The notes under the pieces are model-generated. The model worked only from the letters and a program-made list of their open reading frames with translations, was not told where the DNA came from and ran no database searches. From the NCBI GenBank assembly GCA_043819795.1, contig JBDREN010000008.1, positions 1 to 31,616 of the forward strand: a stretch of 31,616 nucleotides of DNA. Direction: 5' to 3'. A program made the position numbers and the translations under genes. The DNA is from Elusimicrobiota bacterium. GTDB lineage: Bacteria; Elusimicrobiota; Elusimicrobia; UBA1565. How positions within the stretch are numbered: position 1 is the first letter of the stretch; the number at the start of each line of letters is the position of its first letter. Positions 7,792 through 28,595 of this stretch are shown here, in pieces.

Positions 7792-8172
7792 TCACCCCTT
7801 CGCGTAGCTCTCCGGGTCGTCCTTGAACTTCCCGCCGCAACCCGGGCAGCAGAAGTAATAGGCCTTGCCCTTGTACTCGGCGACCTGCGTGTCGGCCTTG
7901 ACCTTGAAGGTCGAGCCCATGACCGGGCACGTCGCCTCCCGGCCGACCTCGGAGGCGAGCGCCTCGCGGAGGGTCACGATTGCTCCGGACGCGTCTTCGG
8001 CGGCCTCCGGGGCCTCCTTTTGCGCCTCCATCCCGGCCTGGGCGCTCCCGGCGGCCTCGGCGGCGGGCGCCGCTCCGTGCTCACGGCCGCCGCTCTCCGG
8101 GCCCGAGCCCTGTCCGCATCCGGCCAGCATGGCGGCGAGGAACGCCGCCGCTCCTATGTTGATGCGATTCAT
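7792..8172 (-). CDS. YHS-domain lipoprotein
   Basis: Lipobox MLAGC; low-complexity Ala/Glu linker; ATCPVMG..YKGKAYYFCCPGCGGKFKDDPESY. Confidence 0.85.
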   Translation of the reverse strand: MNRINIGAAAFLAAMLAGCGQGSGPESGGREHGAAPAAEAAGSAQAGMEAQKEAPEAAEDASGAIVTLREALASEVGREATCPVMGSTFKVKADTQVAEYKGKAYYFCCPGCGGKFKDDPESYAKG

Positions 8173-8173
8173 C

Positions 8174-10333
8174 TCATCTTCCTCCCTGATTCACTTCCGA
8201 TAGTCTACGAGATTCCGACTCTCGCGCCCGCGGCGCGGCGCCGTCCAGGAGCCGTACCAACTCCAGGGGATCGCTTGTCGGCAGCGCGCAGGCGAAGTCC
8301 CCGCAGACGTACGCGGCCGGCTCGCCCTTCAAGGGGACCATCCCCTTGAGGACCGGCAGGCGCCGCGCCATGCGCTCCCTTTCCTTCCCGGAAGGCAGGA
8401 CGATGAGCGTCCTCGCGGGAAGGCGGCGGGAATGCACCACGCGCAATAGCGCGCGCGTCCCCGGGTGGTCCGGAGCGCCCGCGATGATGATCTGCCGGGG
8501 CGGGGAAGCGAGCCGGCCGGCCGCCGCGAGCATCAGCATCATGGAGCGCGGCGCGGCGCGCAGCTGCCCGCCGTATCCCGCCAGCGTCCTCTCCGCCGCC
8601 TTCCGGTAGTCCTCGCGCCCGGTCAACTCCGCCAGGCGGAGCAAAGACAGGCAAGCCACGGAAGCGGCGCTCGGCTCCACCCCGTCGGAATCCTCCTTCA
8701 TCCTCGCCAGCAGGCGCGGGGCCCGCCCCTTGGCCGTCATGTAATAGCCGCCCCGCTCGGGGTCGAAGAAGTCTCTTTGAAGGGTGTCGGCGAGCTCCAG
8801 GGCCCAATCGAGCCAGTCCGGATCGAAGGAGGCCTCGTAGAGGTCCACCAGCCCCTGGGCCAAGAATGCGTAGTCGTCGGCCATCCCGGCCACGGCCCTC
8901 TCCCCCTCCCGCCAGCGGTGCCAGAGCTTCCGGGCGCCGGGCTCGTAGAGCGCCTTCCGGATGAATCGCGCCGCCTCCTCGGCCGCTTTCAGATACGCGG
9001 GCTCCTCGAACGCCTGGTATCCCTTCGCGAACGCCGAGATCATCAGCCCGTTCCAGGAGGCGAGCACCTTGTCGTCGAGGTGGGGCCTGGGGCGTTTCGC
9101 CCGGGCCTCCAGGAGCTTGCCGCGCGCGACCTCGAGCACGCGCGCGATCTCCACCTCGGTCTTGCCGAACGCCTCGGCCGTCTCCTTGAGCGTGCGCGCG
9201 GCGTAGAGGATGTTCTTCCCCTCGAACTCCCCGTGCGGGTCGTGGGGCGCGTTGCCCTCCGGCCGGACGCCGTAGCGGCGGCCGAACACCGCGCCGGCGG
9301 CCTGCCCCAAGGCCGCCACGACCTCCCGCTCGCTCCAAACGTAGAACGCTCCCTCGGCCTTCTCTTCGCCGCCGCCTTCTATCTTGCTGTCGGCGTCCTC
9401 GGCCGAGTAGAAGCCCCCCTCCGGATGCGTCATGTCCCGCAGGACGTAGTCGAGCGTCTCCCGGGCAACGCGCGCCAGCCCGGGGTCCCCGGAGGCCTGG
9501 AAGGCCTCGACGTAGTTGACCGCCAGCTGAGCGTTGTCGTAGAGCATCTTCTCGAAGTGGGGGACGCGCCAGCTCCCGTCCACGGAGTAGCGGTGGAAGC
9601 CGCCTCCCACGTGATCGTAAATGCCGCCCGCCGCCATCTCGCCGAGCTTGCGGCGCGCGATCTCGAGCGCCTCGCCGCAGCCGGTGCGCGCGTGGTGCAG
9701 GAGCAGGAAGCCGGTATCGGACGGCATGGGGAACTTCGGGCCTTGCCCCCCGTCATGCCGGGACTCGGGGAGCAGCGCCTCGAAGGCCTTGTCGAGCTGG
9801 GCGGGGGAGACGGCGGACGCTTCCCGCTCCGCCTCGGCCTGCGCCTTCAAGGCGGCCGCCACGCGCCGGGCGTCCTGGGCGATGTCCGAGCGCCGCTCCT
9901 TCCAAAGCCGCGCGATGCGGATCAGCAGCGGACGGAAGCCGGGGATGCCCTGGCGGGATTCCGGGGGGAAGTACGTCCCGCCGACGAACGGCTCCAGGTC
10001 CGGAGTCAGCCAAAGCGACAGCGGCCAGCCCCCGCCCCACCCCGCCATCAGCGCGGCCGTCATATACAGCTTATCCACGTCGGGCCGCTCCTCGCGGTCC
10101 ACCTTGACGGCCACGAAACCGCGGTTGAGGACCTCGGCGGTATTCGGGTCCTCGAAGGACTCCCGCTCCATCACGTGGCACCAATGGCAGGTGGAATAGC
10201 CGATGGAAAGGAAGATGGGCTTGTCCTCCCGGCGAGCCTTCTTGAAGGCCTCCTCCCCCCAGGGATACCAGTCCACCGGATTGCGGACGTGCTGCAAAAG
10301 ATACGGACTCTTCTCTCCGGCCAGATGGTTCAT
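8174..10333 (-). CDS. YyaL/SPATA20-type thioredoxin-domain (DUF255) protein with six-hairpin glycosidase-like fold
   Basis: [68 protein letters not shown]. Confidence 0.93.
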
Positions 10334-10339
10334 CCCGCG

Positions 10340-10696
10340 CTAGCCGCCTTCGGCGCCCTCGCCCAGCAGCGTTCCGGCCGCCGCGACCGCGAAGGCCTGG
10401 GAGAGCTCGCGGCCGATGGGGCCGGCGCCGATCACCGCCAGCCGCCCGGACAGGCGGTTCAGGGAGAATACCGTCTCATTGCTCAGGTACCCGGCCTCGG
10501 CCAGCCCGGGGATGGGCGGGGCGGCCGCGACCAGACCCGCCGAGCCCGCGCCCAGGACCACGAGGTTGTAGGTCCCGGCCGGCTCGGGATTGACCCAATC
10601 GGGCGGATGCGCGTTCGCGACCGTGTTTCTGTTGTGCTCATCGAAAGGATCCATGCTCACGGACGCCTCCTTGGTCTCGATCGTCTTGGTGGGCAT
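10340..10696 (-). pseudogene. Internally deleted mercuric-reductase/dihydrolipoamide-dehydrogenase-like flavoprotein remnant
   Basis: HPPDWVNPEP..YNLVVLGAGSAGLVAA is joined directly to APPIPGL..YLSNETVFSL..RLAVIGAGPIGRELSQAF. The CxxxxC redox segment and the whole C-terminal half are missing (118 aa). Confidence 0.8.
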
Positions 10697-10706: not shown

Positions 10707-11429
10707 CTAATCGATGCGTTTCGCGAGGGCCTTGCGCGCGATCCGGGTCACGGACACCGTCACGACGACCGTCGCCAGCAGGCCCGCCCCGTAAAAAGCC
10801 CACTCCTCCGGCACGCGCGCCCGGCCGCCGGCGCCCAGCGCGGCCAGATCGCCGGCGAGCGACCCGATATAGACGTACATGACGGTCCCGGGGATCATGC
10901 CGAGCCAGGAACCGAAAAAGTAGTCGCGCAGGGAGACCTTGGTCAGTCCGAAGGCGTAGTTGAGCAGGTTGAACGGGAAGACGGGGGAGAGGCGGGTCAG
11001 GCCGACGATCTTGAATCCCTCCTCGGCGACGGCCGCGTCGATCGCACGGAAGCCCGCCTTGCCCGCGATCTTCCCGGAGACCCAGCCGCGCGCCAGGTAC
11101 CGGCCGATCAGGAAGGCGGCCGTGGCGCCCAGCGTCGACGCCACCGAGACCAGCACCGATCCCCGCACGACGCCGAAGAGAAGGCCCGCTCCCAGCGTCA
11201 GCACCGAGCCGGGCAAAAACAGCACCGTGGCGAGGATATAGGCCGCGGCGAACGCGACAGGCGCCATGGCTCCGAGCGCGTCGATCCAGGCGAGCGCCTC
11301 CCGCAACACCTGCCGGATATCGACGGTCCGCGCGAGCGCGACGACGACCAGCAGGCCGGCGATCCAGAGGACCGGCTTGAGGGCGGCGCAACGGCCCTCC
11401 CCGCCCGCCTCCGACACCGCCTGGGCCAT
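10707..11429 (-). CDS. TVP38/TMEM64 (DedA/SNARE-associated) membrane protein
   Basis: LFLPGSVLTLGAGLLFG, GATAAFLIGRY, RLSPVFPFNLLNYAFGLT; GAGGAGG RBS before the ATG at 11429. Confidence 0.92.
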   Translation of the reverse strand: MAQAVSEAGGEGRCAALKPVLWIAGLLVVVALARTVDIRQVLREALAWIDALGAMAPVAFAAAYILATVLFLPGSVLTLGAGLLFGVVRGSVLVSVASTLGATAAFLIGRYLARGWVSGKIAGKAGFRAIDAAVAEEGFKIVGLTRLSPVFPFNLLNYAFGLTKVSLRDYFFGSWLGMIPGTVMYVYIGSLAGDLAALGAGGRARVPEEWAFYGAGLLATVVVTVSVTRIARKALAKRID

Positions 11430-11453
11430 GCCGCCTCCTCTGTCTCCTCTCAT

Positions 11454-11500: not shown

Positions 11501-11593
11501 TCAGCCGCCGGGATGCAGCTCGATGTCCGCTTACCAAGCCTCGACGCGCCCCGCCGTGTCGTCCGTATCGGTCATGATCGCGATACCGGAGAT
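11501..11593 (-). pseudogene. C-terminal stub of a DUF3047-family gene
   Basis: Reads ISGIAIMTDTDDTAGRVEAW*ADIELHPGG*, matching the DUF3047 tail GIAIMTDTDNT....A.YGDI, with TAA where the Tyr codon is expected. Confidence 0.7.
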
Positions 11594-14100
11594 CAGCAGC
11601 AGGAGCCGCCCTTGCCCCCCGCGCAGCAGCCCCCGTCCGCGGAGGCCGCGACCGGCTCCGCCGGAGCGTCCGCCGTCCTCTCGCGCCCGTCGGGCTCCAG
11701 CACCCGGAACATGCCGCCGTACGGGCCGGCCAGCAGCTTGGCCGCGGCGCCGATGCAGACCTCCACGGGCTCGTTCCTGCAGAAGAGATGCCCCTCTTCG
11801 TCCATGACGGACTTCCACGGGCCCAGGTAGACCGCTTTTTGGCCGGTGAACCGGCAGACGCTCCTCTTGGCGTACTTATGGGCGCTCACGGTCACCGAAT
11901 GAAACCGGTGTCCCCGCACCTCCTTCCAGAAGGTCCGCTTGAGCACGCGCAGCCCGTAGAAGCCGGCCCGCTCCAGCTCGGCCAGGAACTCCTCCTCGGA
12001 GAGGGCGCCGGTCAAGCACTCCCCCCACAGGCGCTCGTCCGCCTGAAGGGCGGCGGGCACGCGCCTGTCCGATACGATGTCGGCCACGCAGATGCGGCCG
12101 TGGTCCTTGAGGATGCGCCAGATCTCCCCGAAGACCTTGGGCTTGTCCGGAGAGAGGTTGAGCACGCAGTTGGAGCTCACGCAGTCCGCGCTCTCGTCTT
12201 CGACCGGGATGCGCTCCAGGAAGCCCTTGCGGAACTCGGCCACGTCGTAGCCCAGGTTGCGGGCCACCACGGGAGCGCTGCGGCGGGCCACCTCCAGCAT
12301 GGCGTCGGTCATGTCCACGCCGATCACTTTCCCCTCGGGACCGACCTTCTTGGCCGCGATGAAGCAGTCGATGCCGCCGCCCGAGCCCAGGTCAACGAAG
12401 GTCTCGCCCTCAATGAGCCCCGCTTGGCCGACCGGGGAGCCGCAGCCGTAGAACCGGTCCAGGACCTCACCCGGGATATGCCCCGTGTCCGCCGGGTCGT
12501 ACTTGACCGGGCAGCAGAGCTCCTTCCGCGGCTCCTCGGCCGCGCCGCCGTAGAACTCCTGCAGTACGCGGTAGGGCTTGTGCACGTCGAAGGCCAGCAC
12601 GCAGTTGGAATGGAGGGTGCGCACCGGCGCGTCCACCTCCAGCCACTCTTTGGTCTTGCCCGGGGCCTCGCAGGCGAGCTGCTCGGTTCCCATCGCGTAC
12701 CACACCACCGGCGCGGAGTAGCCCGTGCGCCGGTTGAAGGCCTCGGCGCGGGAGCGCGCGATCGCCTCCATGGCGTCCTTGATCGCCTCGACGTAGAGGG
12801 GATGATGGGGGTCGGACACGCCGTTCGAAAAGTAGTGGGCGTGCTCGACGTCCCCCCCGCCGGTCAGGAAGCGGAAGGGATCCGCGCTCGAAGCCATGCG
12901 CGCGAGCGAGCGCGAGCGCCAGTCGCGCGCCACGGGGCTGTCGAGCCACAGGCTCCTGAGCTTGCTCTCCTTCGCGGAGCCCAAACACAGCGCGTCCTGT
13001 CCCGCGGTCGCGGCCGTGGGGTAGACCGTTCCGTCGTGGTAGAGGCACAGGCTCTCCCAGCAGGCGTTGGAGAGGTCGTACTTCACCCCCGGCTGGCCGC
13101 GCAGGCGCTGCCGGAACGCCTCCTCGTTGTCCAGGCGCACCCCCAGCCCGGCCGCCCGGTCGCGCACGGTCCGGTACAGGTCGACGAGCTCGAGCCCGGT
13201 CGGGAAATCCGCCTCCGCGGCCCGGCCCCGCTTGTGCAGCCACATCAGGTGCAGCGACCCCGCGCCCAGGTCCCGGACCAGCTCGGGCATGGCCTCGAGG
13301 TCCCGCATATTGGACTGTGCGACCACTGTAGTCAGAGAGGTCTCGAACCCCCTCTCCACCAGAGCCTTCAGGCCCTTGCAGGCGGACTCGAAGCCGCCTC
13401 CGCCCCGGATCGCGTCGTTGACCTCCGGCGTGGCCCCGTCCAAGCTGACCTGAAACCGGACCTTGCCCCGGTCCAAAGAGTCCAGCGCGGCCAGACGCTC
13501 GCCGGTGAGCAGCGTGGCGTTGGTGAGGACGATCAGCTCGGCGTCCTTGGCCCCGGTCGCGGACTTCGCCAGCTCCGGGAAATCCGGGCGGATGAGCGGC
13601 TCGCCGCCGGTGAAATAGAATCGGTGCGTCCCCAGCTCCACGGCTTGGCCCATGACATCTCTATAGAACCCCGTATCCGCGCCCTTGGCGCCCTTTGGCC
13701 CCGAGGAAACGAGACAATGCCGGCAAGACAGGTTGCAGGTCTGAAGCAGGTGAAGCCAGAGCTCCCGCAGGGACTCGGGCGTGAGGTAGCGGTCCCGGCC
13801 GGGATACGTCTGCTTTGGGAAGGGCGAGGCCCTGAGCAGGTCGTGGCGGAGAGCGTCGCGAAGGAACTCGTGCAGCTCGAGCCAGGCTTTCGCCGGCGCC
13901 AAGCCGTAGCGGGTGCGGTACTCGTCGGCCAGACGCCCGAAAGGGGTCCTCCCGTCCGCGCGGCCCAGGATCCAGGCTCCGCGCTCGTCGGTGGCGGCCC
14001 AGTGCGGCCGGTCGGGGTCGAGCCAGAGATGGACGTCTCCCCGCTGGAACGCGTGCCAGTCGGGGCCGTGCAGTATCAGATCTTGGGTGAGCTCCATCAT
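11593..14100 (-). CDS. Fusion: PqqD-like N-domain + radical SAM + degenerate SPASM-like region + ArsM/AS3MT-type As(III) methyltransferase
   Basis: CNLSCRHC and FTGGEP (radical SAM). ELCCP, FYGCGSP, DLGSGGGID, VIGVDMT, SSNCVLNLSPDK and WGECLTGAL (ArsM motifs). C-terminal CC..CC tail. ATGA overlap with the upstream gene. Confidence 0.88.
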   Translation of the reverse strand: MMELTQDLILHGPDWHAFQRGDVHLWLDPDRPHWAATDERGAWILGRADGRTPFGRLADEYRTRYGLAPAKAWLELHEFLRDALRHDLLRASPFPKQTYPGRDRYLTPESLRELWLHLLQTCNLSCRHCLVSSGPKGAKGADTGFYRDVMGQAVELGTHRFYFTGGEPLIRPDFPELAKSATGAKDAELIVLTNATLLTGERLAALDSLDRGKVRFQVSLDGATPEVNDAIRGGGGFESACKGLKALVERGFETSLTTVVAQSNMRDLEAMPELVRDLGAGSLHLMWLHKRGRAAEADFPTGLELVDLYRTVRDRAAGLGVRLDNEEAFRQRLRGQPGVKYDLSNACWESLCLYHDGTVYPTAATAGQDALCLGSAKESKLRSLWLDSPVARDWRSRSLARMASSADPFRFLTGGGDVEHAHYFSNGVSDPHHPLYVEAIKDAMEAIARSRAEAFNRRTGYSAPVVWYAMGTEQLACEAPGKTKEWLEVDAPVRTLHSNCVLAFDVHKPYRVLQEFYGGAAEEPRKELCCPVKYDPADTGHIPGEVLDRFYGCGSPVGQAGLIEGETFVDLGSGGGIDCFIAAKKVGPEGKVIGVDMTDAMLEVARRSAPVVARNLGYDVAEFRKGFLERIPVEDESADCVSSNCVLNLSPDKPKVFGEIWRILKDHGRICVADIVSDRRVPAALQADERLWGECLTGALSEEEFLAELERAGFYGLRVLKRTFWKEVRGHRFHSVTVSAHKYAKRSVCRFTGQKAVYLGPWKSVMDEEGHLFCRNEPVEVCIGAAAKLLAGPYGGMFRVLEPDGRERTADAPAEPVAASADGGCCAGGKGGSCC

Positions 14101-15479
14101 ATTCCCCTCCGGCCGTCTCTCTTGGGGTAAGTGCCCCGCGGCTCCGGATCATTACTCCGCTCCCGCCAGCGCTCCAGATCGCGCGCCGTGTCCACGTCGA
14201 AATAAGCGGGCAGCAGCTTGACGCGCAGCGCCTCTTCGCGCGCCCGCTCCAGGGTCTTCTCGAATACGAGCGGGCCCGACCACGGGATGTCGCAAAAGAG
14301 GCCCGGCAGATGCCGGGACATGCCTATCAGATAATATCCCCCGTCTTCGGCGGGACCGACGACCAGGTCGTGGCTCTCCAACGCGTCGAAGGCCGCCGTG
14401 ATGGTCGCGGCGGGAAGGCCCGGGGAGTCCGTGCCGATCGCGCAGACCGGACCGCCGGACTCGGCGAAAGCCCGTTCGAAGGCCGCCTCCAGACGGCGCC
14501 CCAAGTCTCCCTCGGGCTGGCGCCGGAACGGGGCGCCGGGAAGTCCCAGCCAGGCGAGGTCCTCGAAGCCCGGCTCGGGGGCGTAGGACCAGACGATATC
14601 CATGCCGGACAGGCATTCCACTTCCTCGCGGACCGCCCGCGCCATCGCCGCGTAGGCCTCGGCGGCCCTCGCCGCCCCGATTTCCCGGGAGAGACGGGTC
14701 TTCACCTTCCCGGGCACGGGCGCCTTCAGGAACACGAGCAGGGAGCGCCCGCCCCTCGCCCCCTCCGCGACGCGCGAACCCTCCGGACCCGCTCCGTAGT
14801 AGTCCCTCCACAGTCTTTCCGGAGTGGCGCCCAGCGCGAAGCGCGCGCGGATCCAAGAGTTCCGCAGGGAATTGACCACGGGGCCGTTCGCTCGCAGCCG
14901 GCGCGCGGACGGGGCGATGCGCTCGGGCAGGAGAACGATGCGGCCCAGGCCGCGCAGGCGCCGTGAGAAGAGCACGTCCTCCATGAGCGGCGCCGGCGGG
15001 AAGCCTCCCGAACGCACGTAGAGCTCCCTCGGCACACAAAAGCCCGCGTCGCCGTAGGCGATCCGCCGCACCCGCACTCGGGTGTTCTGTCCCCAAGCCA
15101 CCAGGCGGTAGCTCCACCCCGGGCCGTAGTCCACGCTGAAGACCGTGGCGGCCGCCGAGGAGGACCGCTCTGGCGACCAGAACCGCTCCAGGATCTCGCA
15201 CCAGTCGGACGGCGGCCGGGTGTCGGAATGCAGGAAGAACAACAGGTCCCCGGAGGACGCCTCGGCGCCCGCGTGGAGCTGGGCCCCGCGGTTGGGAGCG
15301 CCTAGCGACACCAGGCGGTCAGCCCGCGGACGCGCGGCTTGGGCGGTGCCGTCGCGGCTGCCGCCGTCCACGACGACGATCTCCACCCTCTCCGGAGGCG
15401 AGGCCGCGCGCAGACGCTCGAGCGAAGGGGCGATGTGCCGGGCTTCGTTCCAGACCGGGACGATGATCGAGAATCTCAC
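14097..15479 (-). CDS. Fused glycosyltransferases: GT2 TIGR04283-like + DUF2064/TIGR04282-like
   Basis: N-half SIIVPVWNE, VVDGGSRDGT, NRGAQLHAGA, LFFLHSDT, YGDAGF, PLMEDV, SARR. C-half FLKAPVPGKVKTRL, QPEGDLGRRL, IGTDSP, GPAEDGGYYLIG, IPWS, DVDTARDL. Confidence 0.88.
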   Translation of the reverse strand: MRFSIIVPVWNEARHIAPSLERLRAASPPERVEIVVVDGGSRDGTAQAARPRADRLVSLGAPNRGAQLHAGAEASSGDLLFFLHSDTRPPSDWCEILERFWSPERSSSAAATVFSVDYGPGWSYRLVAWGQNTRVRVRRIAYGDAGFCVPRELYVRSGGFPPAPLMEDVLFSRRLRGLGRIVLLPERIAPSARRLRANGPVVNSLRNSWIRARFALGATPERLWRDYYGAGPEGSRVAEGARGGRSLLVFLKAPVPGKVKTRLSREIGAARAAEAYAAMARAVREEVECLSGMDIVWSYAPEPGFEDLAWLGLPGAPFRRQPEGDLGRRLEAAFERAFAESGGPVCAIGTDSPGLPAATITAAFDALESHDLVVGPAEDGGYYLIGMSRHLPGLFCDIPWSGPLVFEKTLERAREEALRVKLLPAYFDVDTARDLERWRERSNDPEPRGTYPKRDGRRGI

Positions 15480-15584: not shown

Positions 15585-16103
15585 TTACAGCTTGCCCACG
15601 AGCGGAGCCGGCACGGTGAATATCCGGGCGCCGGCCTCCTTGTCCATCATGAAGAGGGCGTTGCCGTCCCCCACGCGCTTGATCTGGCCGAGCCAGGTGC
15701 CGGCCGTGGCCTCTTCCTCCACCTGCTCTTTCACGAACCACTCCAGGAACTGCTTGGTCGCATGGTCGCGCTCCGAGATGGCGAGGTCCACCAAGCTATG
15801 GATGGAGGCCGTCACCTTCTTCTCATGCTCGAGCGTATGTTCGAACACGTCGGTCAGGGACTTGAAGTCCGAGGTCGGGGCCTCGATCGCGCCCAGGATG
15901 GCCCGCGAACCCTGCTCGCACACGTAGTTGAAGATGATCGTCGCGTGGCTCAGCTCCTCCTGGGCCTGGGTCCGCATCCATTTCGCGAACCCCGGAAGGT
16001 CCTGCGCCTCGAGATAGGAGGCCATCGACATGTACAGGTAGGCCGAATAGAATTCCTTGGTGATCTGGTCGTTCAGGGCCGCCGTCATCTTGTCGTTGAT
16101 CAT
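15585..16103 (-). CDS. ftnA: Non-heme ferritin
   Basis: LNDQITKEFYSAYLYMSM, QAQEELSHA, HEKKVT, FLEWFVKEQVEEE ferroxidase ligands; GAGGAG RBS. Confidence 0.95.
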   Translation of the reverse strand: MINDKMTAALNDQITKEFYSAYLYMSMASYLEAQDLPGFAKWMRTQAQEELSHATIIFNYVCEQGSRAILGAIEAPTSDFKSLTDVFEHTLEHEKKVTASIHSLVDLAISERDHATKQFLEWFVKEQVEEEATAGTWLGQIKRVGDGNALFMMDKEAGARIFTVPAPLVGKL

Positions 16104-16143
16104 GTTCTCTCCTCGTTCCTCAGGATGTTCCGTCGTTCCTCCG

Positions 16144-16174
16144 CTATGAGTGTCGGGCCGCCGGGCCCCGTTAC
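16144..16174 (-). promoter_or_regulatory. Putative ECF-sigma promoter upstream of ferritin
   Basis: GTAAC-16 nt-ACACTCATAG; the -35 element overlaps the TAA of the upstream CBS gene. Confidence 0.75.
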
Positions 16175-16686
16175 GCGTCCGCCTCACGCGGCGCCAGGTA
16201 GCGCATCAGATCCTCGACCCTCACGGCTCCGACCGTCCCGTCCGGCAGGCGGACCGGCAGCACGTGGTAGCGGCCCACCGCCATGTGGTGGAAGGCGAAG
16301 GCCACGGGATCGTCCGCGTCCAAGCATACCGGAAAGGCGTGCATGAGCTCGCTCACCGGCGTGTCCCCGCCCAGGCGCGCGCCGGGCGGAGCGAAAAGCA
16401 GGTCGCGCTCTCCCAGCATACCCCGCACCTCGCCCTTCTGCGTCACCATCACGCAGCAGGCCCGGTTCTCGCGCATGAGCCGCACCGCCTCGGCGAGGGA
16501 GGCGTCCGGCCCGACCGCGAGCGCCTTCCGGGGCGGGATATCCGCTATCGTCCCGCTGAGGATCTTCTCGCATAGGACGTCCTTGGGCCGCGGCATGGTC
16601 AGCGGCGCGAGCGGAGCGCTGCACGACTCGCAGGCGTCCTCGCCCGGGATGTTCTTATGGCCGCAGTCGGGGCATATGAGCTTCAT
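16171..16686 (-). CDS. CBS-pair protein with N-terminal zinc ribbon
   Basis: CPDCG..CESC followed by two CBS repeats; ATGA overlap with korB. Confidence 0.85.
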   Translation of the reverse strand: MKLICPDCGHKNIPGEDACESCSAPLAPLTMPRPKDVLCEKILSGTIADIPPRKALAVGPDASLAEAVRLMRENRACCVMVTQKGEVRGMLGERDLLFAPPGARLGGDTPVSELMHAFPVCLDADDPVAFAFHHMAVGRYHVLPVRLPDGTVGAVRVEDLMRYLAPREADA

Positions 16687-17714
16687 CGCACCTCCCAGCT
16701 GTCGGGACCCGTGAGCAGCTCCTGGAGGTCGCCGGCGCCGTCCTTCATCTGGGACCGGACGCGCTCCTCCATCAAGCCGTCGTACGTCGTGTCCGGCACG
16801 GCCCGCAGCACCCCCATGGGGGTCGGGAACTCCGGCGGCTCCAGCCGGGTCAGCAGGTACGCGTATTCCGGGCCGGTACGCTCGTTGTGGGTGAGGATGT
16901 CCGGCGGGGGATCTCCCGGCGTGAACTTGACGACCTCGGGCCTCATGCCGTTGAGCCGGATGCCGCGTTCCTTGTCCTTGCCGAACACCAAGGGCTTGCC
17001 GTGCTCCAGCTTCACCGTGAAATCGTCGCGCGTGGCCCGGTCCTCGACCTCGGAGAAGGCGCCGTTGTTGAACACTATGCAGTTCTGGTAGATTTCCACG
17101 AACGACGTGCCCTTGTGGAGCGCCGCCCGCTCCAGCACGTAGCTCAGGTGCAGGACGTCGGTGTCGACGGCGCGGGCGACGAAGGTCGCCTCCGCGGCCA
17201 GCGCGATCCTCAGCGGATGCATCGGACGCCCGATCGAGCCGTAGGGCGAGGACTTGGTCACCTTGCCCCGCTCCGATGTGGGCGAGAACTGCCCCTTGGT
17301 GAGCCCGTAGATCCGGTTATTGAAAAGCAGGATATTGATGTCCACGTTCCGGCGCATGGCGTGGATGAGGTGGTTGGCGCCGATGGACAGGCCGTCGCCG
17401 TCTCCGGTCACGACCCACACCGAGAGGTCGGGGCGGGCGCACTTGAGGCCCGTGGCAATGGCCGGGGCGCGTCCGTGGATCGAGTGGAACCCGTAGGTAT
17501 TCATGTAGTACGGGAAGCGGCTCGAGCACCCGATGCCGGAGATGAAGATTTGCTTCTCCCGCGGCGTCCCGATCCGGGCCAGGACCTTCTGGACCTGGGC
17601 CAGGATGGCGAAATCGCCGCAGCCCGGGCACCAGCGGACCAGCTGGCCCGACACGAAGTCGTTGCGCGTCAGCGGCCGGTTCGAATCCGGAGCGGGGAAG
17701 GTCCGGTCAGGCAT
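16683..17714 (-). CDS. korB: 2-oxoacid:ferredoxin oxidoreductase beta subunit
   Basis: WCPGCGD, SGIGCSSR, IHGRAPA, GDGD..NN TPP motif, YGLTKGQFSPT. Confidence 0.93.
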   Translation of the reverse strand: MPDRTFPAPDSNRPLTRNDFVSGQLVRWCPGCGDFAILAQVQKVLARIGTPREKQIFISGIGCSSRFPYYMNTYGFHSIHGRAPAIATGLKCARPDLSVWVVTGDGDGLSIGANHLIHAMRRNVDINILLFNNRIYGLTKGQFSPTSERGKVTKSSPYGSIGRPMHPLRIALAAEATFVARAVDTDVLHLSYVLERAALHKGTSFVEIYQNCIVFNNGAFSEVEDRATRDDFTVKLEHGKPLVFGKDKERGIRLNGMRPEVVKFTPGDPPPDILTHNERTGPEYAYLLTRLEPPEFPTPMGVLRAVPDTTYDGLMEERVRSQMKDGAGDLQELLTGPDSWEVR

Positions 17715-19569
17715 CGGCCCCTCCCCGCCCCTCAAGGAGCTCCGCGACCCTGTTCCGGATCTCGGAGGTCTTGAACGGCTGGCCCTTCACCTTGCTGAAG
17801 CCGACCACGGGCACGAGATACTTGGCGCGGAGCAGCATGGCCAGCTGGCCCAGGTTCATCTCGGGCACCAGGACCTTCTCGAAACGCGCCATGATCTCCC
17901 CGAGGTCCGGCGGAAGGGGGTTCAGGTAGCGCAGATGCGCGGCCGACACCGGAGCGCCCTCGGCCCGCAGGCTCCTGACCGCGGTCGTGATGGCGCCGTA
18001 GGTCGAGCCCCAGCCCACGACCAGCACGCGGCCCTCCTTCCCGCCGAGGACGCTCGTCGGAGGGATCTCCGCGGACATGCGGCGCACCTTCTCCGCTCGG
18101 ATGCCCACCATGCGCTCGTGGTTGTCCGGGTCGTAGCTCACGTCGCCCGTGACGTCCTGCTTCTCGAGCCCGCCGATTCGATGCTCGTAGCCCGCCGTGC
18201 CGGGAAGGACCCAGGGGCGGGCGAGCGTATCCTCGTCGCGCCGGTACGGGCCGAACGCGTCCGGGGCGGCGCCCGGATAGTGGGAGACCTCGAACTTGGG
18301 CAGATCGGAGAGGTCCGGGATTCTCCAAGGCTCCGAGCCGTTGCCGAGGTATCCGTCGGAAAGGAAGAACACGGGATGCCGGTATTTCATGGCCAGGCGG
18401 CAGGCCTCGATGACCATCGCGAAGCAGTCGGACGGCGTGGCGGGGGCGACCACGGCCGCGGGCGACTCCCCGCTCCGGCCGAACAGGGCCTGCAGGAGAT
18501 CGGCCTGCTCGGTCTTGGTCGGCATCCCGGTGGAGGGGCCGCTGCGCTGGACGTCGATGATGACGACCGGCAGCTCGGCCATGACGGCCAGGCCGATCAT
18601 CTCCGATTTGAGGGCCACGCCGGGGCCGCTCGTACCCGTGACCGCCAGAAGCCCCCCGAACGAGGCGCCCACCGCGGCGCCGATGCCGGCGATCTCGTCC
18701 TCGGTCTGGAAGTTCTTCACGCCGAAGGACTTCAGGCGCGCGAACCGATGCAGCAGGTCCGAGGCCGGGGTGATGGGATACGACGCGTAGAAGAGCTGGT
18801 GCTCGGAGAGCCTGCTCGCCGTCACCAGGCCCAGGACCGTGGCCTCGTTGCCGGTCAGGTTGCGGTAGCGGCCGGGCGCCAGGGGCGCCTTCCCCACCCG
18901 GTAGCGCTTGCCGAAAAGCTCGGCGGTCTCGGCGAAGGCGTGCCCGGCGTCGAGGGCCCGGGTGTTGGCCTCCGCCATCAGGGGGACCTTCCCGAACTTG
19001 CCCTTGATCCAGGCCCGGGTCGGGTCCAGCGTGCGCTCGTAAAGCCAGTACATCAGCCCGAGAGCGAAGAAGTTCTTGCAGCGGCCGACCTGCGCCGGGC
19101 TCAGCTTCATGCCCTCGAGCGCCTTGCCCGTCAAGGCGTTCATCGGGACCTTGACGACCTCGTAGGAGGAAAGGGTGTCGTCCTCCAGGGGATCCGCTGC
19201 GAAGCCCGCCTTCTTGAGGTTCTGGGGGGTGAAGGTATCCGTATTGACCAGGACCGTACCGCCCCGCTCCAGGTCCTTCAGGTTGGCCTTGAGCGCGGCC
19301 GGGTTGAAGGCGACCAGGACCCGCGGCTGATCGCCGGGGGTCAGGATATCGCTCGAGGAGAACTGGATCTGGAAGCCGCTGACCCCCGGCAAGGTGCCGG
19401 CCGGAGCGCGGATCTCGGCGGGAAAGTCCGGGAATGTGCTCAGGTAGTTGCCGGCGAGGGCCGTGGAGGCGGTGAACTGCCCGCCGGTGAGCTGGACCCC
19501 GTCGCCGGAGTCGCCGGCGAAGCGGATGGTGACGGCCTCGATCGCGGAGGCCGCGCGGGGCTCGCTCAT
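17707..19569 (-). CDS. korA: 2-oxoacid:acceptor oxidoreductase alpha subunit (gamma-alpha fusion)
   Basis: AGDSGDGVQLTG, FPAEIRAPAGT, SYPITPAS, QTEDEIA, TSGPG, QRSGPSTGMPTK; start by ATGA overlap at 19569. Confidence 0.93.
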   Translation of the reverse strand: MSEPRAASAIEAVTIRFAGDSGDGVQLTGGQFTASTALAGNYLSTFPDFPAEIRAPAGTLPGVSGFQIQFSSSDILTPGDQPRVLVAFNPAALKANLKDLERGGTVLVNTDTFTPQNLKKAGFAADPLEDDTLSSYEVVKVPMNALTGKALEGMKLSPAQVGRCKNFFALGLMYWLYERTLDPTRAWIKGKFGKVPLMAEANTRALDAGHAFAETAELFGKRYRVGKAPLAPGRYRNLTGNEATVLGLVTASRLSEHQLFYASYPITPASDLLHRFARLKSFGVKNFQTEDEIAGIGAAVGASFGGLLAVTGTSGPGVALKSEMIGLAVMAELPVVIIDVQRSGPSTGMPTKTEQADLLQALFGRSGESPAAVVAPATPSDCFAMVIEACRLAMKYRHPVFFLSDGYLGNGSEPWRIPDLSDLPKFEVSHYPGAAPDAFGPYRRDEDTLARPWVLPGTAGYEHRIGGLEKQDVTGDVSYDPDNHERMVGIRAEKVRRMSAEIPPTSVLGGKEGRVLVVGWGSTYGAITTAVRSLRAEGAPVSAAHLRYLNPLPPDLGEIMARFEKVLVPEMNLGQLAMLLRAKYLVPVVGFSKVKGQPFKTSEIRNRVAELLEGRGGADA

Positions 19570-20036
19570 GCTCCCTCCGCCTCGCCGCCGATCTGCTTCG
19601 GCCTGGGAGGCAGGTTGACCACCTCCGCCGCGAACATGTAGGCGAGATAGCGCAAGAGCGTCCCCACGCTCAGCAGGCCCGTCAGGCGGCCCTCCTCGTC
19701 GACTATGGGGAGGCACGATACGCCCTTCTCCCGCATGAGGGCCGCCGCCTCCCCGACCGTGGCGTCGGACCGGACCGTCGCGGGATCGCGAGTCATGAGC
19801 TCCGAGATCGGCGTCCCCGGGTCGGTCCCCTCCAGGACGCATTTGGCCACGAAATCCCGCGCCGAGAAAAGGCCCTTCACCGTCCGGTCGCGGCAGATGA
19901 CGATGAACCCGCTCTTCCTCTCCCGGAGGATCCTGAGCACCTCGCCGTAGGGAGTGGTCTCCTCGGCGCAGACCGGCTCGGTCTGCTTCAGGTGGGAAAG
20001 CTTCTCGGCGAAAGGATCGGTCTGCTCGGTCGTCAT
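19566..20036 (-). CDS. CBS-pair protein
   Basis: GLFSARDF..PISELMTRDP..LPIVDEEGRLTGLLS. Confidence 0.85.
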   Translation of the reverse strand: MTTEQTDPFAEKLSHLKQTEPVCAEETTPYGEVLRILRERKSGFIVICRDRTVKGLFSARDFVAKCVLEGTDPGTPISELMTRDPATVRSDATVGEAAALMREKGVSCLPIVDEEGRLTGLLSVGTLLRYLAYMFAAEVVNLPPRPKQIGGEAEGA

Positions 20037-20049
20037 GATGCCCGGCCCC

Positions 20050-20862
20050 TCACCAGAACTTCTCCATATGGATCTGTCCGGGCGTCCTCTTGGTATGCTC
20101 AGTGAAGCCCTCCGCGCCCAAAAAACGGATCGCCGATTCGATCATGAGCGGATTGCCGCACAGGAACACGTGGGTGTCGTCCTTCTTCGGATGGCCGCCC
20201 CAGGCCTTCCCGACCAGATCGGCCTTCCACACGTCCTCGACGAACCCGGTCTGCCCGCCCCAAGGGGCGTGCTCCTGCGCGGGCTCACTGACTACGGGGA
20301 TATATGTGAAATGCGGGGAAAGCCTGTCAAGGGTCTCCAGCTCGGAGCGATAGCCCAGGTCCCAGGAATGCAGGGCGCCGTGGATGACCGCGTAGTTCCG
20401 GTCGAAGCCCTCGGAGGTGGCCAGCGTGCGGAGCATCGACATGTACGGGGCCAGGCCCGTGCCGGTGGATATGAGAAGGACGTTGGCGTCTTTGGGGACC
20501 GCCTCCAAGGTCATCAGACCCGTGAACTTCTTTCCCAGCCATACCGGGTCTCCGATCTTGAGGTTGAAAAGCCGGGGAGTCAGGGTCCCGGATCGCACCA
20601 ACGTGATGTAGAACTCCGCGTGGTCCTTGGCCGTCGAGGACGACGCGATCGAGTAGGGCCGCAGGATCATCTTGTCGGGAGCCGGCGGCTCGGCCTCCTG
20701 GTCCGCGAGAGGCGTGCGGGGCGCGGACCCCGGAAGCCCGAGAACGGAATACTGGCCCGGCTTGAAGTCGGGCAGGTCCCAGCCTTCCGGAGCCACCCGC
20801 AGCACGAAATAGCCCGGCGCCAACTCCATCCTGCCTATCACTTTGGCGTTCAACTGGCTCAT
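20050..20862 (-). CDS. fpr: Ferredoxin/flavodoxin-NADP+ reductase
   Basis: FKPGQY, RPYSIAS, GTLTPRLF, STGTGLAPYMS, FLCGNPLMI, C-terminal EKFW. Confidence 0.92.
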   Translation of the reverse strand: MSQLNAKVIGRMELAPGYFVLRVAPEGWDLPDFKPGQYSVLGLPGSAPRTPLADQEAEPPAPDKMILRPYSIASSSTAKDHAEFYITLVRSGTLTPRLFNLKIGDPVWLGKKFTGLMTLEAVPKDANVLLISTGTGLAPYMSMLRTLATSEGFDRNYAVIHGALHSWDLGYRSELETLDRLSPHFTYIPVVSEPAQEHAPWGGQTGFVEDVWKADLVGKAWGGHPKKDDTHVFLCGNPLMIESAIRFLGAEGFTEHTKRTPGQIHMEKFW

Positions 20863-22199
20863 GATGTCTCCTTGACTGCGCGCCCGCTCCTCTCCGCGGC
20901 GGCCTCGGCCGTCGGCCTCGCCCCGGGCAGGCTGAAAGCGAACTCGGCCCATCGGCCAGGCTCGGAGGACGCGCTCAAGCGGCCCCCGTGCTTCTGGGCG
21001 ACCCACCAGGCCAGGTACAGTCCCAGGCCGCTCCCCTTTCGGTCCTCCAATCCCTTCTGGCGAAGCCGCGAGAACCTCTTGAAGAGCATCCGGGACTGCT
21101 CCTCGGTGAAACCCACTCCCTCGTTGCGCACCGTGACCGTAAGCCGGCCGCCGGAGACGGACACGGACACCCGGACCTCCTGCGCGTCCACGCCGTACTT
21201 GACGGCGTTGTCCAGCAGGTTGACCATGAGCGTCCTCAAGAGCACCGGATCGCCGTGGAGCAGGATATCCCCCGCCGGGGCGTCGACCTTCAGCCGGGCG
21301 CCGCGCTGGGACGCGTGCGCGGCCGTCGTGTCCTGGGCCCACTGGAAAACGTCCCGCAGGAAGCGGACCCCATCCTCGGGCTCGTAGCGCATCTCCCCGG
21401 ACTCGAGCCGGGAGAGGTCGATATAGTTGCTCACCATGTCGGAGAGATAGCCGGCGGTCTTGTTCATCGCCCGGACGACCTCGGCCGCCTCCTTCTGGAC
21501 CTCCCCCTTGTAGCCGTCGAGATAGGTGGTGCCCCTGGCCATGAGTCCCGCCAGCGGGCTCTTGAGCTCGTGGGCGACGAAGCCGAGCATCTCCAGATAG
21601 TTGCCCTTGGCCTCCTCCAAACGGGCGATGATCCATGCCTTCTCCACCGCCTGCGCGATGCGGTCGACCACTTCGAGGAGGATCTGGGCGTGCTCCTCTT
21701 CATAGACGAGCGGCTGGCGGCAGGAGAAGAACATGAAACCCACCCGGCGCTCGCCCACCGAGAGCGGAAGCGTGATGTTCGCCTTGACGCCCTCCGCGAG
21801 GATGAGCCGCGTCGAATGGGATTCCGGATGGAGCGCGAGATAGTATGCCAGGTCCGGGATGATGCGCACGCCCCCGGAGTCCATCAAAGCCTTCAAAGAC
21901 GATCCCGCGAGAGACGCCGAATAGCTCTCCCCCAGCCGCACGTCGCCGTACGCGGCCTTGAAACACCGGGCCGTGACGCGCAGCCCGTCCCGCTCGATGA
22001 AGCTCAGCCCGATCCGGTCGCGGGGAATGATCCCGTCCGTCGCGGACCACACGCAGTCGAGCACCCCGTCTATCGAGTCCCCGCTGTTGACCTGCCGCGC
22101 GATGCGCTCCAGCGCCGATCTGACGCGCGGGGAAAACGAGGACGAATCCCTCCTCGGTCGGGTGTAGACGACGGCGTCGCTGCCGGCCTGGTAAACCAC
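20859..22199 (-). CDS. Cytoplasmic GAF-sensor histidine kinase
   Basis: GAF region; H-box AHELKSPL; N-box NLLDNAVKY; G-boxes NEGVG and GSGLGL. GTG start inferred from GGAGG just before the aspA stop. Confidence 0.88.
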   Translation of the reverse strand: MVYQAGSDAVVYTRPRRDSSSFSPRVRSALERIARQVNSGDSIDGVLDCVWSATDGIIPRDRIGLSFIERDGLRVTARCFKAAYGDVRLGESYSASLAGSSLKALMDSGGVRIIPDLAYYLALHPESHSTRLILAEGVKANITLPLSVGERRVGFMFFSCRQPLVYEEEHAQILLEVVDRIAQAVEKAWIIARLEEAKGNYLEMLGFVAHELKSPLAGLMARGTTYLDGYKGEVQKEAAEVVRAMNKTAGYLSDMVSNYIDLSRLESGEMRYEPEDGVRFLRDVFQWAQDTTAAHASQRGARLKVDAPAGDILLHGDPVLLRTLMVNLLDNAVKYGVDAQEVRVSVSVSGGRLTVTVRNEGVGFTEEQSRMLFKRFSRLRQKGLEDRKGSGLGLYLAWWVAQKHGGRLSASSEPGRWAEFAFSLPGARPTAEAAAERSGRAVKETS

Positions 22200-22201
22200 C
22201 C

Positions 22202-23620
22202 CTATCGCCTCCGTTTCGTCCGTCTCGCTCCGGCGCGCCTCTCCCAGACATGAGGGTCCAGCAGCCGGTCCAACTCCTTGCGCGTCAGCAGGCCGCGCTC
22301 CTCCACGAGCCGGGTCACGGCGACGCCCCGCCGTTGGGCCTCCCGGAACAGCTCCCCGGCCCGCGCGTAGCCGATAAGCGGATTGAGAAGGGCGGCCACC
22401 GAAAGGCTCCTCTCCCGGTAATCCCGGCATCGGGCTGCGTCCGCGCGGATTTCGCGGACGCAGCGCCTCTCCACCTCGGGGAGGAAGTTGATAAGGAGCT
22501 GGGCGGAATCCAGCAGGTTGTGGGCCGAGAGCGGCATCATGACGTTCAGGTCCATCTGCCCCGCCTGCGCGCACAAAGCCACCGCCAAGTCCCGGGCGAC
22601 GATCTGGAACGCCACCATGTTGAGGCACTCCAGGATCGAGGGATTCACCTTCCCGGGCATGATGGAGGAGCCCGGCTGAGCGGCCGGAAGGCGAATCTCC
22701 GCCAGGCCGGTGTTCGGGCCCGAAGAAAGCAGGCGCAGGTCGTTGGCCACGCGGATCAGCTCGAGGCAAAGCTCCTTGAGGGCGCTCGAGACGGCCGCCA
22801 GCGGCTGGTGGCTCTGCAGGCCCAGGCGCATGTCGGGCGCGGGCTTGAGGGGCAGCCCGGTGAGCCTCGCCAAATGCCGGACCGCCCTGCGGCGGAACCC
22901 GGGCGGGGTGTTCGCGCCCGTGCCGGCCGCCGTCCCGCCGAGCGGGACCTCCCGCAGGAGCCGGGAGCGGCGCTCGAGCTCCAGGCGGCAGGCCCGGAGC
23001 GCCGCCGCGTACGCCGCGAACTCCTGGCCCAGGGAGATGGGGACCGCGTCCTGAAGATGCGTCCGGGCCGACTTCACGACGGCCCGAAACTCCCGTCCCT
23101 TGGCGGCGAAAGCCTTCTCCAGGGAACGCAGGACGGGAAGCAGCTCTCGGACCTGCCCGAGCAGGGCCACGTACGTCGCGGTCGGGAAGGAATCGTTGGT
23201 GCTCTGCGACATGTTGACGTGATCGTTGGGGTGGATGGCGGAATAGTCCCCCTTCGGCCGGCCGGAGAGCTCCAGGGCGCGGTTCGCGACGACCTCGTTG
23301 ACGTTCATGTTGAGCGACGTGCCCGCCCCCGCCTGGTAGACGTCCACCACGAACTGGCCGTCAAGCCGGCCGGCCAGGACCTCCTCGCACGCCTTGATCA
23401 CGGGCCGGGAGATCGAGGCCTTGAGCGCTCCAAGCTCCCGGTTCGCCGTGGCGCACGCCACCTTGACCGCCGCGTAGGCTCGGATCAGCGCCGGGTGCGC
23501 CCTCAAGCCCGAGACCGGGAAGTTCTCTTTGGCCCTGAGGGTCTGGACGCCGTAGTAGGCCTCGCGAGGGACCTTCCTGGTCCCCAAGGAATCCTTCTCG
23601 ATCCGGGTCCGGCCGCTCAT
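22202..23620 (-). CDS. aspA: Aspartate ammonia-lyase (fumarase/aspartase family)
   Basis: RIEKDSLG, YYGVQT, QAGAGTSLNMN, SQSTND, RTHLQDA, GSSIMPGKVNP. GAGTS favours AspA over FumC. Confidence 0.8.
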   Translation of the reverse strand: MSGRTRIEKDSLGTRKVPREAYYGVQTLRAKENFPVSGLRAHPALIRAYAAVKVACATANRELGALKASISRPVIKACEEVLAGRLDGQFVVDVYQAGAGTSLNMNVNEVVANRALELSGRPKGDYSAIHPNDHVNMSQSTNDSFPTATYVALLGQVRELLPVLRSLEKAFAAKGREFRAVVKSARTHLQDAVPISLGQEFAAYAAALRACRLELERRSRLLREVPLGGTAAGTGANTPPGFRRRAVRHLARLTGLPLKPAPDMRLGLQSHQPLAAVSSALKELCLELIRVANDLRLLSSGPNTGLAEIRLPAAQPGSSIMPGKVNPSILECLNMVAFQIVARDLAVALCAQAGQMDLNVMMPLSAHNLLDSAQLLINFLPEVERRCVREIRADAARCRDYRERSLSVAALLNPLIGYARAGELFREAQRRGVAVTRLVEERGLLTRKELDRLLDPHVWERRAGARRTKRRR

Positions 23621-28462: not shown

Positions 28463-28497
28463 GATCGTCCTCCTCGTCCGGGCAAGTTCCCCGCCGC

Positions 28498-28528
28498 CTG
28501 TGAGTGCCGCCGGCTGAAGCCTCGTTAC
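28498..28528 (-). promoter_or_regulatory. Putative ECF-sigma promoter upstream of nifU-sigma-antisigma
   Basis: GTAAC-16 nt-GCACTCACAG. Confidence 0.75.
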
Positions 28529-28595
28529 GCGTCCCGGCCCGGGCGCAGCGCGCGACGCCTCTTATCATATGATAACTTCTTCACGCACAGCCGGC

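Follow-up and report, generated by a model that had tools for sequence, protein, structure and literature searches.

Introduction

Radical S-adenosylmethionine (SAM) enzymes form carbon–arsenic (C–As) bonds in two described systems. As far as the accessible sections of the sources go, ArsS adenosylates dimethylarsenite to 5'-deoxy-5'-dimethylarsinoyladenosine (DDMAA), from which adenine is later removed (PMC13598754; 10.64898/2026.04.29.721666), and in ArsL, cysteines at the C-terminus bind As(III) (10.64898/2026.04.29.721666). In the accessible sections of four sources, ArsS and ArsL are the only radical SAM enzymes mentioned that form such a bond (PMC12159101; PMC13598754; 10.64898/2026.04.29.721666; 10.1101/2024.02.01.577332). 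Here we analyze a pair of fusion genes, gene 1 and gene 2, in a 31,616-nucleotide stretch of DNA from an Elusimicrobiota bacterium (GenBank assembly GCA_043819795.1, contig JBDREN010000008.1; the whole stretch is called the window). As judged from a structural model, gene 2 joins a radical SAM scaffold of the peptide-modifying type to an ArsM-type methyltransferase. Its family fills the genomic slot of ArsS by co-occurrence and near mutual exclusion, and gene 2 is probably an uncharacterised way of making C–As bonds. The family is real, widespread and, within the literature searched, uncharacterised.

The initial annotation of the window described two fusion genes coupled by an ATGA overlap, and both open reading frames (ORFs) and the overlap are present as described. 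All the motifs that it quoted for gene 2 (the radical SAM and ArsM cysteines and the CC..CC tail) are present in the sequence as well. The composition given for gene 2 was incomplete, since the N-terminal PqqD-like domain, a recognition element (RRE) of the kind found in the maturation of peptides that are made on ribosomes and modified after translation (RiPPs), and a degenerate SPASM domain were overlooked.

Domain structure of gene 2

The ATG of gene 2 lies directly downstream of a GGAGG sequence, and the GC contents at third codon positions (GC3) of the two genes, 0.91 and 0.86, are like those of neighbouring genes. Misassembly or chance fusion of gene 2 is ruled out by 119 listed relatives, 118 of which cover at least 96% of the query. 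The search matched 1924 proteins among 7999 scored candidates; the 119 relatives, among the matches listed, are 49–70% identical to gene 2, and the named sources among those listed include Elusimicrobia, Nitrospirae, Nitrospinae and Omnitrophica, the nearest named being Elusimicrobia. The Atlas holds a 160-member cluster of the same architecture under an automatic methyltransferase name. Conservation is given below for 110 aligned rows, made up of the query and 109 of the 119 relatives; the other ten were omitted without a rule.

The AlphaFold model of the gene 2 protein is confident and compact (Table 1). Its residues 13–451 align to CteB (5wgg; Z 29.1, root-mean-square deviation (rmsd) 4.4, 400 residues aligned), and SkfB also matches the radical SAM part (Z 27.3). 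PF05402 is found on some relatives (for example, the intact P0283, 39.9 bits, above cut-off) and not on the gene 2 protein itself. The PF04055 match spans aa 120–271, and its three cluster cysteines, C122, C126 and C129, are invariant in the 110 rows. In the SPASM-like region, the YPC and CxxCx5C motifs are missing from all 120 top proteins, with GGGD in their place. A search with this region alone returns 102 representatives, which form a graded series from intact SPASM through second-cluster cysteines only to none. At E 1e-15, 19 NCBIfam families are listed, none of them an ArsL model, and the best radical SAM scores in this list are those of the Rv1681-like (113.6) and MftC (104.6) models. 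When stand-alone forms of the radical part are sought at 220–700 aa, the best matches are mostly partial fusions, and the nearest complete others are Rv1681-like and MftC-like. On the evidence of the model, gene 2 is a RiPP-maturase-type radical SAM scaffold joined to ArsM, and the scaffold is the unusual part.

Related proteins show further architectures. A long form of ~1000–1090 aa with a DUF5714 C-terminus occurs in Desulfobacterota including Candidatus Electrothrix (L014–L023, L026, L250–L256); its DUF5714 part is also related to the selenoprotein MbdU (145.9 bits, below cut-off), and SelD lies nearby in L014 and L016. In P0268, a TIGR04283-like family 2 glycosyltransferase (GT2) is fused in place of DUF5714. 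Relatives with intact SPASM and an HCxC-type tail are fused to TusA domains (P0197, P0291, P0296) or to a methyltransferase without ArsM cysteine motifs (P0264, P0301, P0303, P0331). In P0314, P0322 and P0196, which also have intact SPASM, an ArsM-like domain stands at the N-terminus and the HCxC-type tail is kept.

The C-terminal half of gene 2, which the initial annotation had called an ArsM-type methyltransferase with four cysteines, is ArsM-type as judged from sequence and model. A profile scan places a methyltransferase domain at aa 565–713, and the top structural (Foldseek) and sequence matches of model residues 527–806 are CmArsM, CrArsM and AS3MT. Residues C529, C530, C553, C645 and C695, together with C500 of the preceding linker, are present in 110 of 110 rows. 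The ArsM cysteines align to those of CrArsM and CmArsM, the equivalents in CmArsM being residues 44, 72, 174 and 224; four such positions have been used to identify ArsM, according to the accessible part of one report (PMC5552862). The best methyltransferase models are all ArsM types and none reaches its cut-off (for NF040538, 198.3 vs 500). Stand-alone relatives that adjoin ArsS also score below the NF008823 cut-off (for example, L024, 229.2). The ArsMs of short and long fusions group together with support 91 in a tree of ArsM-like sequences only, without a non-ArsM outgroup. The CC end of the tail is found in 106 of the 110 aligned rows.

The same genome carries a separate arsR-arsM and an arsR-arsC-acr3-like operon, as identified from ORF sequences and BLAST. 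The ArsM of gene 2 is therefore a second copy, and a role as a plain detoxification ArsM is unlikely.

Gene 2 in the genomic slot of ArsS

Gene 2 is not a member of the ArsS family. The ArsS model TIGR04167 gives 62.5 bits vs a cut-off of 300 and covers positions 3–151 of 303, the core only; a profile comparison with an ArsS likewise gives 24% identity over 142 columns of the core. The ArsS tail domain (PF12345/DUF3641) was found neither on the gene 2 protein nor in the 90%-complete genome. We built two radical SAM trees, both of them quick trees that hold no ArsL sequence, and in both ArsS forms one clade that excludes the fusion (SH-aLRT 99 and 100). A branch of support 99 separates the gene 2 family from ArsS, a tree that holds the two together has an approximately unbiased p value (p-AU) of 0.41, and monophyly of the whole gene 2 family has a support of only 13; P0233 in the first tree is a truncated long-type member. 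Thus, a divergent ArsS is rejected as far as membership goes, a sister relation is compatible with the data, and an origin independent of ArsS is likely as judged from these sequences. The initial annotation had noted the missing DUF3641 tail and proposed a profile search and a radical SAM tree; the absence extends to the genome, and search and tree both set gene 2 apart from ArsS.

The distribution of the two enzymes across genomes places the gene 2 family where ArsS would be expected. We scanned 300 genomes of the own phylum and 150 of a second phylum, leaving out the genome at the centre of each sample. The own phylum holds 8 genomes with the fusion, 11 with ArsS and 27 with TIGR04282, and TIGR04282 accompanies 7 of the 8 fusions and all 11 ArsS. 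Among the TIGR04282 genomes, ArsS is present in none of the 7 with the fusion vs 11 of 20 without (Fisher p 0.02, an overstatement because kin are not independent). The second phylum holds the fusion family in 9 genomes (counting an intact-SPASM ArsM fusion, L249), ArsS in 55 and TIGR04282 in 73. All 9 family genomes have TIGR04282, and ArsS is present in 1 of these 9 vs 52 of the 64 other TIGR04282 genomes (Fisher p 7e-5, overstated for the same reason). In 23 hand-picked fusion genomes, ArsS occurs once, and TIGR04282 occurs in 15 of the 16 tested.

The gene neighbourhoods agree with this distribution. In 91 loci of the short form, many on short contigs and a few near-duplicates, the neighbours are PHO4 (52 loci), full-length merA-like (31), DedA (29), DUF2064 (25, plus 10 divergent), TIGR04283-type GT2 (17), DUF547 (14), DUF3047 (9) and ArsC (5), and ArsS is found in none. 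ArsS loci show the same set of neighbours. Co-occurrence with the transferases and the near mutual exclusion of ArsS lend further support to the organoarsenical pathway that the initial annotation had read from this locus. In the survey of homolog neighbourhoods that it had suggested, the arsenosugar-type neighbours recur.

TIGR04282 genomes that have neither ArsS nor the fusion number 21. Two carry a stand-alone member of the gene 2 family near TIGR04282, 7 carry a third type of radical SAM protein and 12 have no candidate with the queries used. One stand-alone member (L280) is placed between the TIGR04282 and TIGR04283 genes, with a single small gene in addition, in a genome in which ArsS was not found; the other (L281) is also close to TIGR04282. 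The small gene (L280:3572-3943), between TIGR04282 and the radical SAM gene, is AhpD/carboxymuconolactone-decarboxylase-like as named by eye, and a similar gene precedes the L281 member.

The third type, of ~300 aa (L204:3914-4807, L205:11671-12561, L283:8907-9794, L284:7899-9746, L285:8874-9764, L275:1-1545), stands beside ArsM and TIGR04283 and is sometimes fused to ArsM (L275, L284). It scores 63–73 bits on TIGR04167 in the two proteins scanned, is placed nearer ArsS in the tree and is found in none of 17 fusion genomes. True ArsS–ArsM fusions of 666–667 aa also occur (L218:8263-10263, L219:422-2425; 359 bits on TIGR04167), as does an apparent DUF2064–ArsS fusion in the same phylum (L215:8356-9918). 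A radical SAM–ArsM fusion is therefore not special in itself.

The linker and Cys500

No short ORF that could serve as a precursor gene is common to more than 4 of 100 loci (1661 short ORFs, a set that could fail to show peptides that are very short or change fast). Because an RRE should have a binding partner even where a precursor gene is missing, we tested the linker of gene 2 as that partner in a complex prediction with three pieces of the one polypeptide (linker, 452–507; RRE, 1–105; radical SAM–SPASM, 106–451). The complex scores 0.82, whereas the best of three controls scores 0.01; 116 of 157 solved complexes attain this score mark, as do 2 of 215 mismatched pairs. At least 76% of contacts are common to the runs, and the partner pLDDT (predicted local distance difference test) is at least 54.

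In the predicted complex, linker residues 466–470 pair with the RRE strand 33–38. CteA binds CteB at the equivalent place of its RRE, according to the accessible part of the structural report (PMC6231123). The contacting linker residues are 462–475 and 491–504, and they meet residues 217, 255, 284–289, 324–349, 362–364 and 414–420, among them the invariant Q217, H284, W287, D324, N325 and the GGGDxEH motif. From these two contact lists, we read 491–504 as the stretch that would enter the radical SAM barrel. The linker is thus predicted to lie on the RRE like a leader peptide and to thread Cys500 into the barrel.

Conservation in distant relatives sets Cys500 apart from a second position. Among the 67 of 109 relatives that pass a motif filter, C500 is kept in 64 whatever the state of SPASM. 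Position 498 is Cys in 17 of 18 relatives with intact SPASM vs 6 of 49 without. In CteB, a substrate Cys ligates the auxiliary cluster Aux I, as the accessible part of the same report states (PMC6231123). The loss of the Cys at 498 along with the SPASM clusters, while C500 is kept, fits a former auxiliary-cluster ligand and a second Cys whose function does not depend on the cluster. The stand-alone proteins of the slot end in the same type of tail.

Proposed route and alternatives

It seems reasonably probable to us that gene 2 is a one-protein substitute for ArsM plus ArsS built on a RiPP-maturase scaffold, in which ArsM supplies dimethylarsenite, which is presented by the tethered Cys and turned into DDMAA through adenosylation by the radical domain. 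From what is known of its family, the ArsM domain would methylate As(III) twice to give dimethylarsenite. With the linker on the RRE like a leader peptide, as modelled, Cys500 in the barrel would hold dimethylarsenite as a thiolate, and the CC tail may load or shuttle arsenic. The 5'-deoxyadenosyl radical would then add to the arsenic and give DDMAA, as the replacement of ArsS in the slot suggests. More speculatively, adenine might be lost and the remaining arsenoribose phosphate be activated with a nucleotide by the CofC-like TIGR04282 domain; its transfer to an acceptor by the TIGR04283 domain might then yield an arsenosugar or an arsenolipid head group. We infer every chemical step of this route, and the channelling within one polypeptide that the initial annotation proposed is likewise hypothetical.

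We hold as a tentative idea, with the odds somewhat against it, that the precursor peptide of a peptide-maturase scaffold was taken up into the enzyme and became a lasting arm of it. The RRE would clamp the leader-like part, the core Cys would carry arsenic from the fused ArsM to the radical site and the Fe–S clusters would have been lost stepwise, which would make gene 2 a third radical C–As enzyme beside ArsS and ArsL.

Several observations weigh against the substitution of ArsM plus ArsS by gene 2. The evidence is confined to architecture, conservation, neighbourhood, near exclusion of ArsS and the predicted linker position. Pieces of one polypeptide tend to pass the complex test, and the pass may echo the solved CteB–CteA complex. 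The partner pLDDT is low, and the score falls to 0.01 when the radical SAM part is replaced, so that the RRE alone did not hold the linker. The ArsM part stays below the cut-offs of NF008823 (223.8 bits vs 263) and of the arsenosugar ArsM model (149.2 vs 400). Related genomes are not independent, the metagenome-assembled genomes are incomplete, two genomes (G311 and G392) carry both fusion and ArsS, one fusion genome (G286) has no TIGR04282 match, and for 12 of the 100 genomes with TIGR04282 the queries used give no candidate for the slot. The scaffold is not always tied to ArsM, as the TusA and non-ArsM methyltransferase fusions of intact-SPASM relatives show. Finally, the locus is eroding, with two gene remnants, and gene 2 departs from 17 of the 275 columns conserved at 90% (median 4), 8 of the departures being in the C-terminal domain.

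The enzyme might occupy the same slot and make another C–As product, an undescribed organoarsenical, through adenosylation of monomethylarsenite or arsenite or through aminocarboxypropyl transfer as in ArsL. The active-site architecture is wholly unlike that of ArsS, and the CxxxCxxC motif does not fix which SAM bond is cleaved, as ArsL shows according to the accessible part of one source (10.1101/2024.02.01.577332). The fusion also has a frequent partner of its own, the PHO4-family transporter; however, a PHO4 neighbour is also seen at an ArsS locus (L212) and at one of the third type (L205), and the tail of gene 2 is not RCCLKC. Moreover, the same two transferases lie downstream of ArsS and of the gene 2 family, suggesting a shared nucleoside-like intermediate and favouring the same product, DDMAA. 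We consider another product rather unlikely; the earlier remark that the product may differ from known arsenosugars describes a possibility that the common transferases weaken. Less likely still is self-modification, in which the region around Cys500 would be cross-linked or otherwise altered by the enzyme's radical domain (a thioether or a protein–arsenic bond are examples), so that a cofactor is made or ArsM is activated. The fold is that of the thioether-forming maturases CteB and SkfB, the linker is predicted in the place of the precursor peptide, the distribution of Cys at 498 recalls the substrate Cys on Aux I of CteB, and fusions to TusA and non-ArsM domains exist. Self-modification nevertheless leaves the exclusion of ArsS unexplained, and likewise the L280 member, which stands between the two transferases without ArsM; the auxiliary-cluster cysteines, in addition, are lost in the gene 2 subfamily.

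The family may also work as proposed while the copy in this genome is a decaying relic, which we regard as improbable. The DUF3047 and merA-like genes are remnants, the locus has no PHO4 or DUF547, fusion and TIGR04282 are without match in 4 of 4 sampled genomes of the same family, and the 8 departures in the C-terminal domain are the most among the 110 rows. On the other hand, both ORFs are whole with all catalytic cysteines kept, their GC3 is like that of the neighbours, and the two relatives nearest to gene 2 show 12 and 13 departures from conserved columns of their own. It is very improbable that gene 2 is a RiPP maturase whose substrate is a peptide encoded elsewhere, on which the methyltransferase would act too. 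The RRE, the radical SAM core, the SPASM-like fold and the leading Rv1681-like and MftC scores would suit it. No external precursor peptide was found among the 1661 short ORFs of the 100 loci, and the shared ORFs look like shadows of neighbouring genes. The locus offers no room for one, with the ATGA overlap upstream and a gene scar downstream; in the prediction, a segment of the same chain occupies the groove of the RRE, and the methyltransferase has all the ArsM cysteines.

If gene 2 is a third radical C–As enzyme, counting arsS in surveys overlooks a capacity for organoarsenicals in Elusimicrobia, Nitrospirae, Omnitrophica, Acidobacteria, Gemmatimonadota and Desulfobacterota including cable bacteria; its family accounts for 16 of the 100 TIGR04282-positive genomes in the two phylum samples. 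An RRE that binds its own chain, together with the series from intact to cysteine-free SPASM, would show a route from RiPP maturase to small-molecule enzyme. With its two genes, the unit is also small enough to serve well in tests of what the TIGR04282 and TIGR04283 transferases, both uncharacterised, do.

Gene 1

Both halves of gene 1 pass their curated cut-offs (Table 1), in agreement with the TIGR04283–TIGR04282 fusion proposed for it earlier. The TIGR04282 half resembles CofC/FbiD nucleotidyltransferases, so that the earlier name double glycosyltransferase is not secured. Its structural matches are 3cgx (33% identity, TMt 0.81), 7p97, a 3-phosphoglycerate guanylyltransferase (TMt 0.79), and 6bwg, Rv2983 (TMt 0.73). 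The CofC model TIGR03552 gives 30.2 vs a cut-off of 105, indicating a likeness to CofC in fold only. The invariant residues of this half are K260-R262-L263, D351, D428 and D430, which may correspond to the nucleotide- and metal-binding residues of CofC/FbiD. As judged from the models, a nucleotidyltransferase is a better guess for this half than a second glycosyltransferase.

The fusion itself is not a novelty, since TIGR04283/TIGR04282 fusions in either order make up most of the 120 matches listed and several have NCBI or JGI names. A literature search found no paper with a tested reaction for TIGR04282 or TIGR04283. The genome has a second TIGR04283-like GT2 (G000:C209:22466-23149; 59% identity to the first half of gene 1), with no arsenic neighbours seen. 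In two other genomes, a Bufferin-type metallophore precursor (BufA2, 68 bits vs 60) lies directly downstream of the TIGR04283/TIGR04282 pair (L203:10057-11265, L205:8672-8998).

State of the locus

The features of the locus are collected in Table 1. Of the neighbours that the initial annotation had named, DedA is intact, and the merA-like and DUF3047 genes are remnants only.

Table 1 Features of the gene 1–gene 2 locus, with positions in the window (pLDDT, predicted local distance difference test; pTM, predicted template modelling score).
Feature	Position	Strand	Evidence
Gene 1: TIGR04283 GT2 + TIGR04282/DUF2064, 460 aa, GTG start	14097..15479	-	model pLDDT 88, pTM 0.68
TIGR04283 GT-A glycosyltransferase domain (aa 4-227)	14799..15470	-	199.9 bits, cut-off 182
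TIGR04282/DUF2064 domain (aa 247-435), CofC/FbiD-like nucleotidyltransferase fold	14175..14741	-	183.8 bits, cut-off 134
ATGA overlap, gene 1 stop / gene 2 start	14097..14100	-	sequence
Gene 2: RRE, radical SAM, degenerate SPASM, Cys linker, ArsM, C-terminal domain, CC tail; 835 aa, ATG start	11593..14100	-	model pLDDT 88.6, pTM 0.89
RRE/PqqD-like domain (aa 1-105)	13786..14100	-	three strands then three helices in AlphaFold model; CteB structural match
Radical SAM core (aa 106-335), CxxxCxxC C122/C126/C129 (nt 13714-13737)	13096..13785	-	PF04055 82.3 bits
SPASM-like domain without auxiliary-cluster cysteines (aa 336-451), invariant GGGDxEH	12748..13095	-	alignment, relatives
Linker (aa 452-507) with leader-like strand 466-470 and, in an HxNC motif, the invariant C500; candidate tethered arm for carrying arsenic	12580..12747	-	complex prediction, conservation
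ArsM methyltransferase with its own C-terminal domain (aa 508-806), C529/C530, C553, C645, C695	11683..12579	-	CmArsM 4fr0 Z 27.4, rmsd 6.4, 272 aligned
Flexible tail ending CC..CC	11593..11682	-	pLDDT <50
DUF3047 gene scar, last ~25 codons, in-frame stop	11519..11593	-	21.4 bits, cut-off 27, E 5e-4; matches C-terminus of intact DUF3047 neighbours
Intact DedA/VTT membrane protein, probably starting at 11429	10707..11453	-	PF09335 96 bits
merA-like (PRK06370) FAD oxidoreductase remnant, 118 aa, internally deleted and truncated	10340..10696	-	profile/sequence comparison

The PHO4/PiT-family transporter, the commonest neighbour in the 91 loci (for example, L129:1870-2976), usually adjoins the fusion. 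Neither PHO4 nor DUF547 was found in the gene 2 locus of the window; a PHO4 gene of this genome lies on another contig and is without match to the locus-type query.

Further genes of the window, all on the minus strand, flank the locus. After the merA-like remnant come a DUF255 protein of 719 aa with a thioredoxin domain and a lipoprotein-like ORF with a YHS domain (7792-10333); DUF255 was not matched in 80 relative loci. Upstream of gene 1 lie an aspartate ammonia-lyase-like protein, a FAD/NAD oxidoreductase, CBS proteins, 2-oxoacid:ferredoxin oxidoreductase alpha and beta and a ferritin (15585-23620), a run that, judging by its gene content, could be a low-potential electron source. At 27533-31565 are a NifU-type Fe–S scaffold (241 bits) and a CusA/CzcA heavy-metal resistance-nodulation-division (RND) pump cut by the contig end.

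Comparison with known systems

A literature search found no paper describing the gene 2 fusion, with most subscription papers and all supplements lying outside the search; supplements on ArsS/ArsL networks might list the family. The closest described system is ArsM plus ArsS. Both it and gene 2 combine an ArsM-type methyltransferase with a CxxxCxxC radical SAM domain, have TIGR04282, TIGR04283, DedA, merA-like, DUF547 and PHO4 as neighbours and occupy the same slot across genomes. Gene 2 differs in its RRE and SPASM-like domains, in having no DUF3641 and in being one polypeptide.

In the arsinothricin system, ArsL plus ArsM, a radical SAM enzyme and ArsM likewise serve a C–As bond, and the C-terminal As(III)-binding cysteines of ArsL have a proposed counterpart in C500 and the CC tail of gene 2. 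Compared by motif and profile, gene 2 has no RCCLKC tail, unlike ArsL, and its ArsM part gives 198.3 vs a cut-off of 500 on NF040538; its neighbours are the arsenosugar transferases.

The peptide maturases CteB, SkfB, PqqE and MftC have the same fold and domain order, and the gene 2 strand is predicted to pair with RRE β3 as CteA does. Unlike them, gene 2 has no auxiliary-cluster cysteines and no conserved precursor gene among the short ORFs of its loci, carries its 'peptide' within the enzyme and is fused to ArsM; the MftC model gives it 102 vs a cut-off of 265. CmArsM, CrArsM and human AS3MT have the same fold as the methyltransferase of gene 2, including the C-terminal domain, and the same cysteines, whereas the ArsM of gene 2 is preceded by 505 residues of radical SAM machinery, has CC at the first cysteine position and ends in a CC..CC tail.

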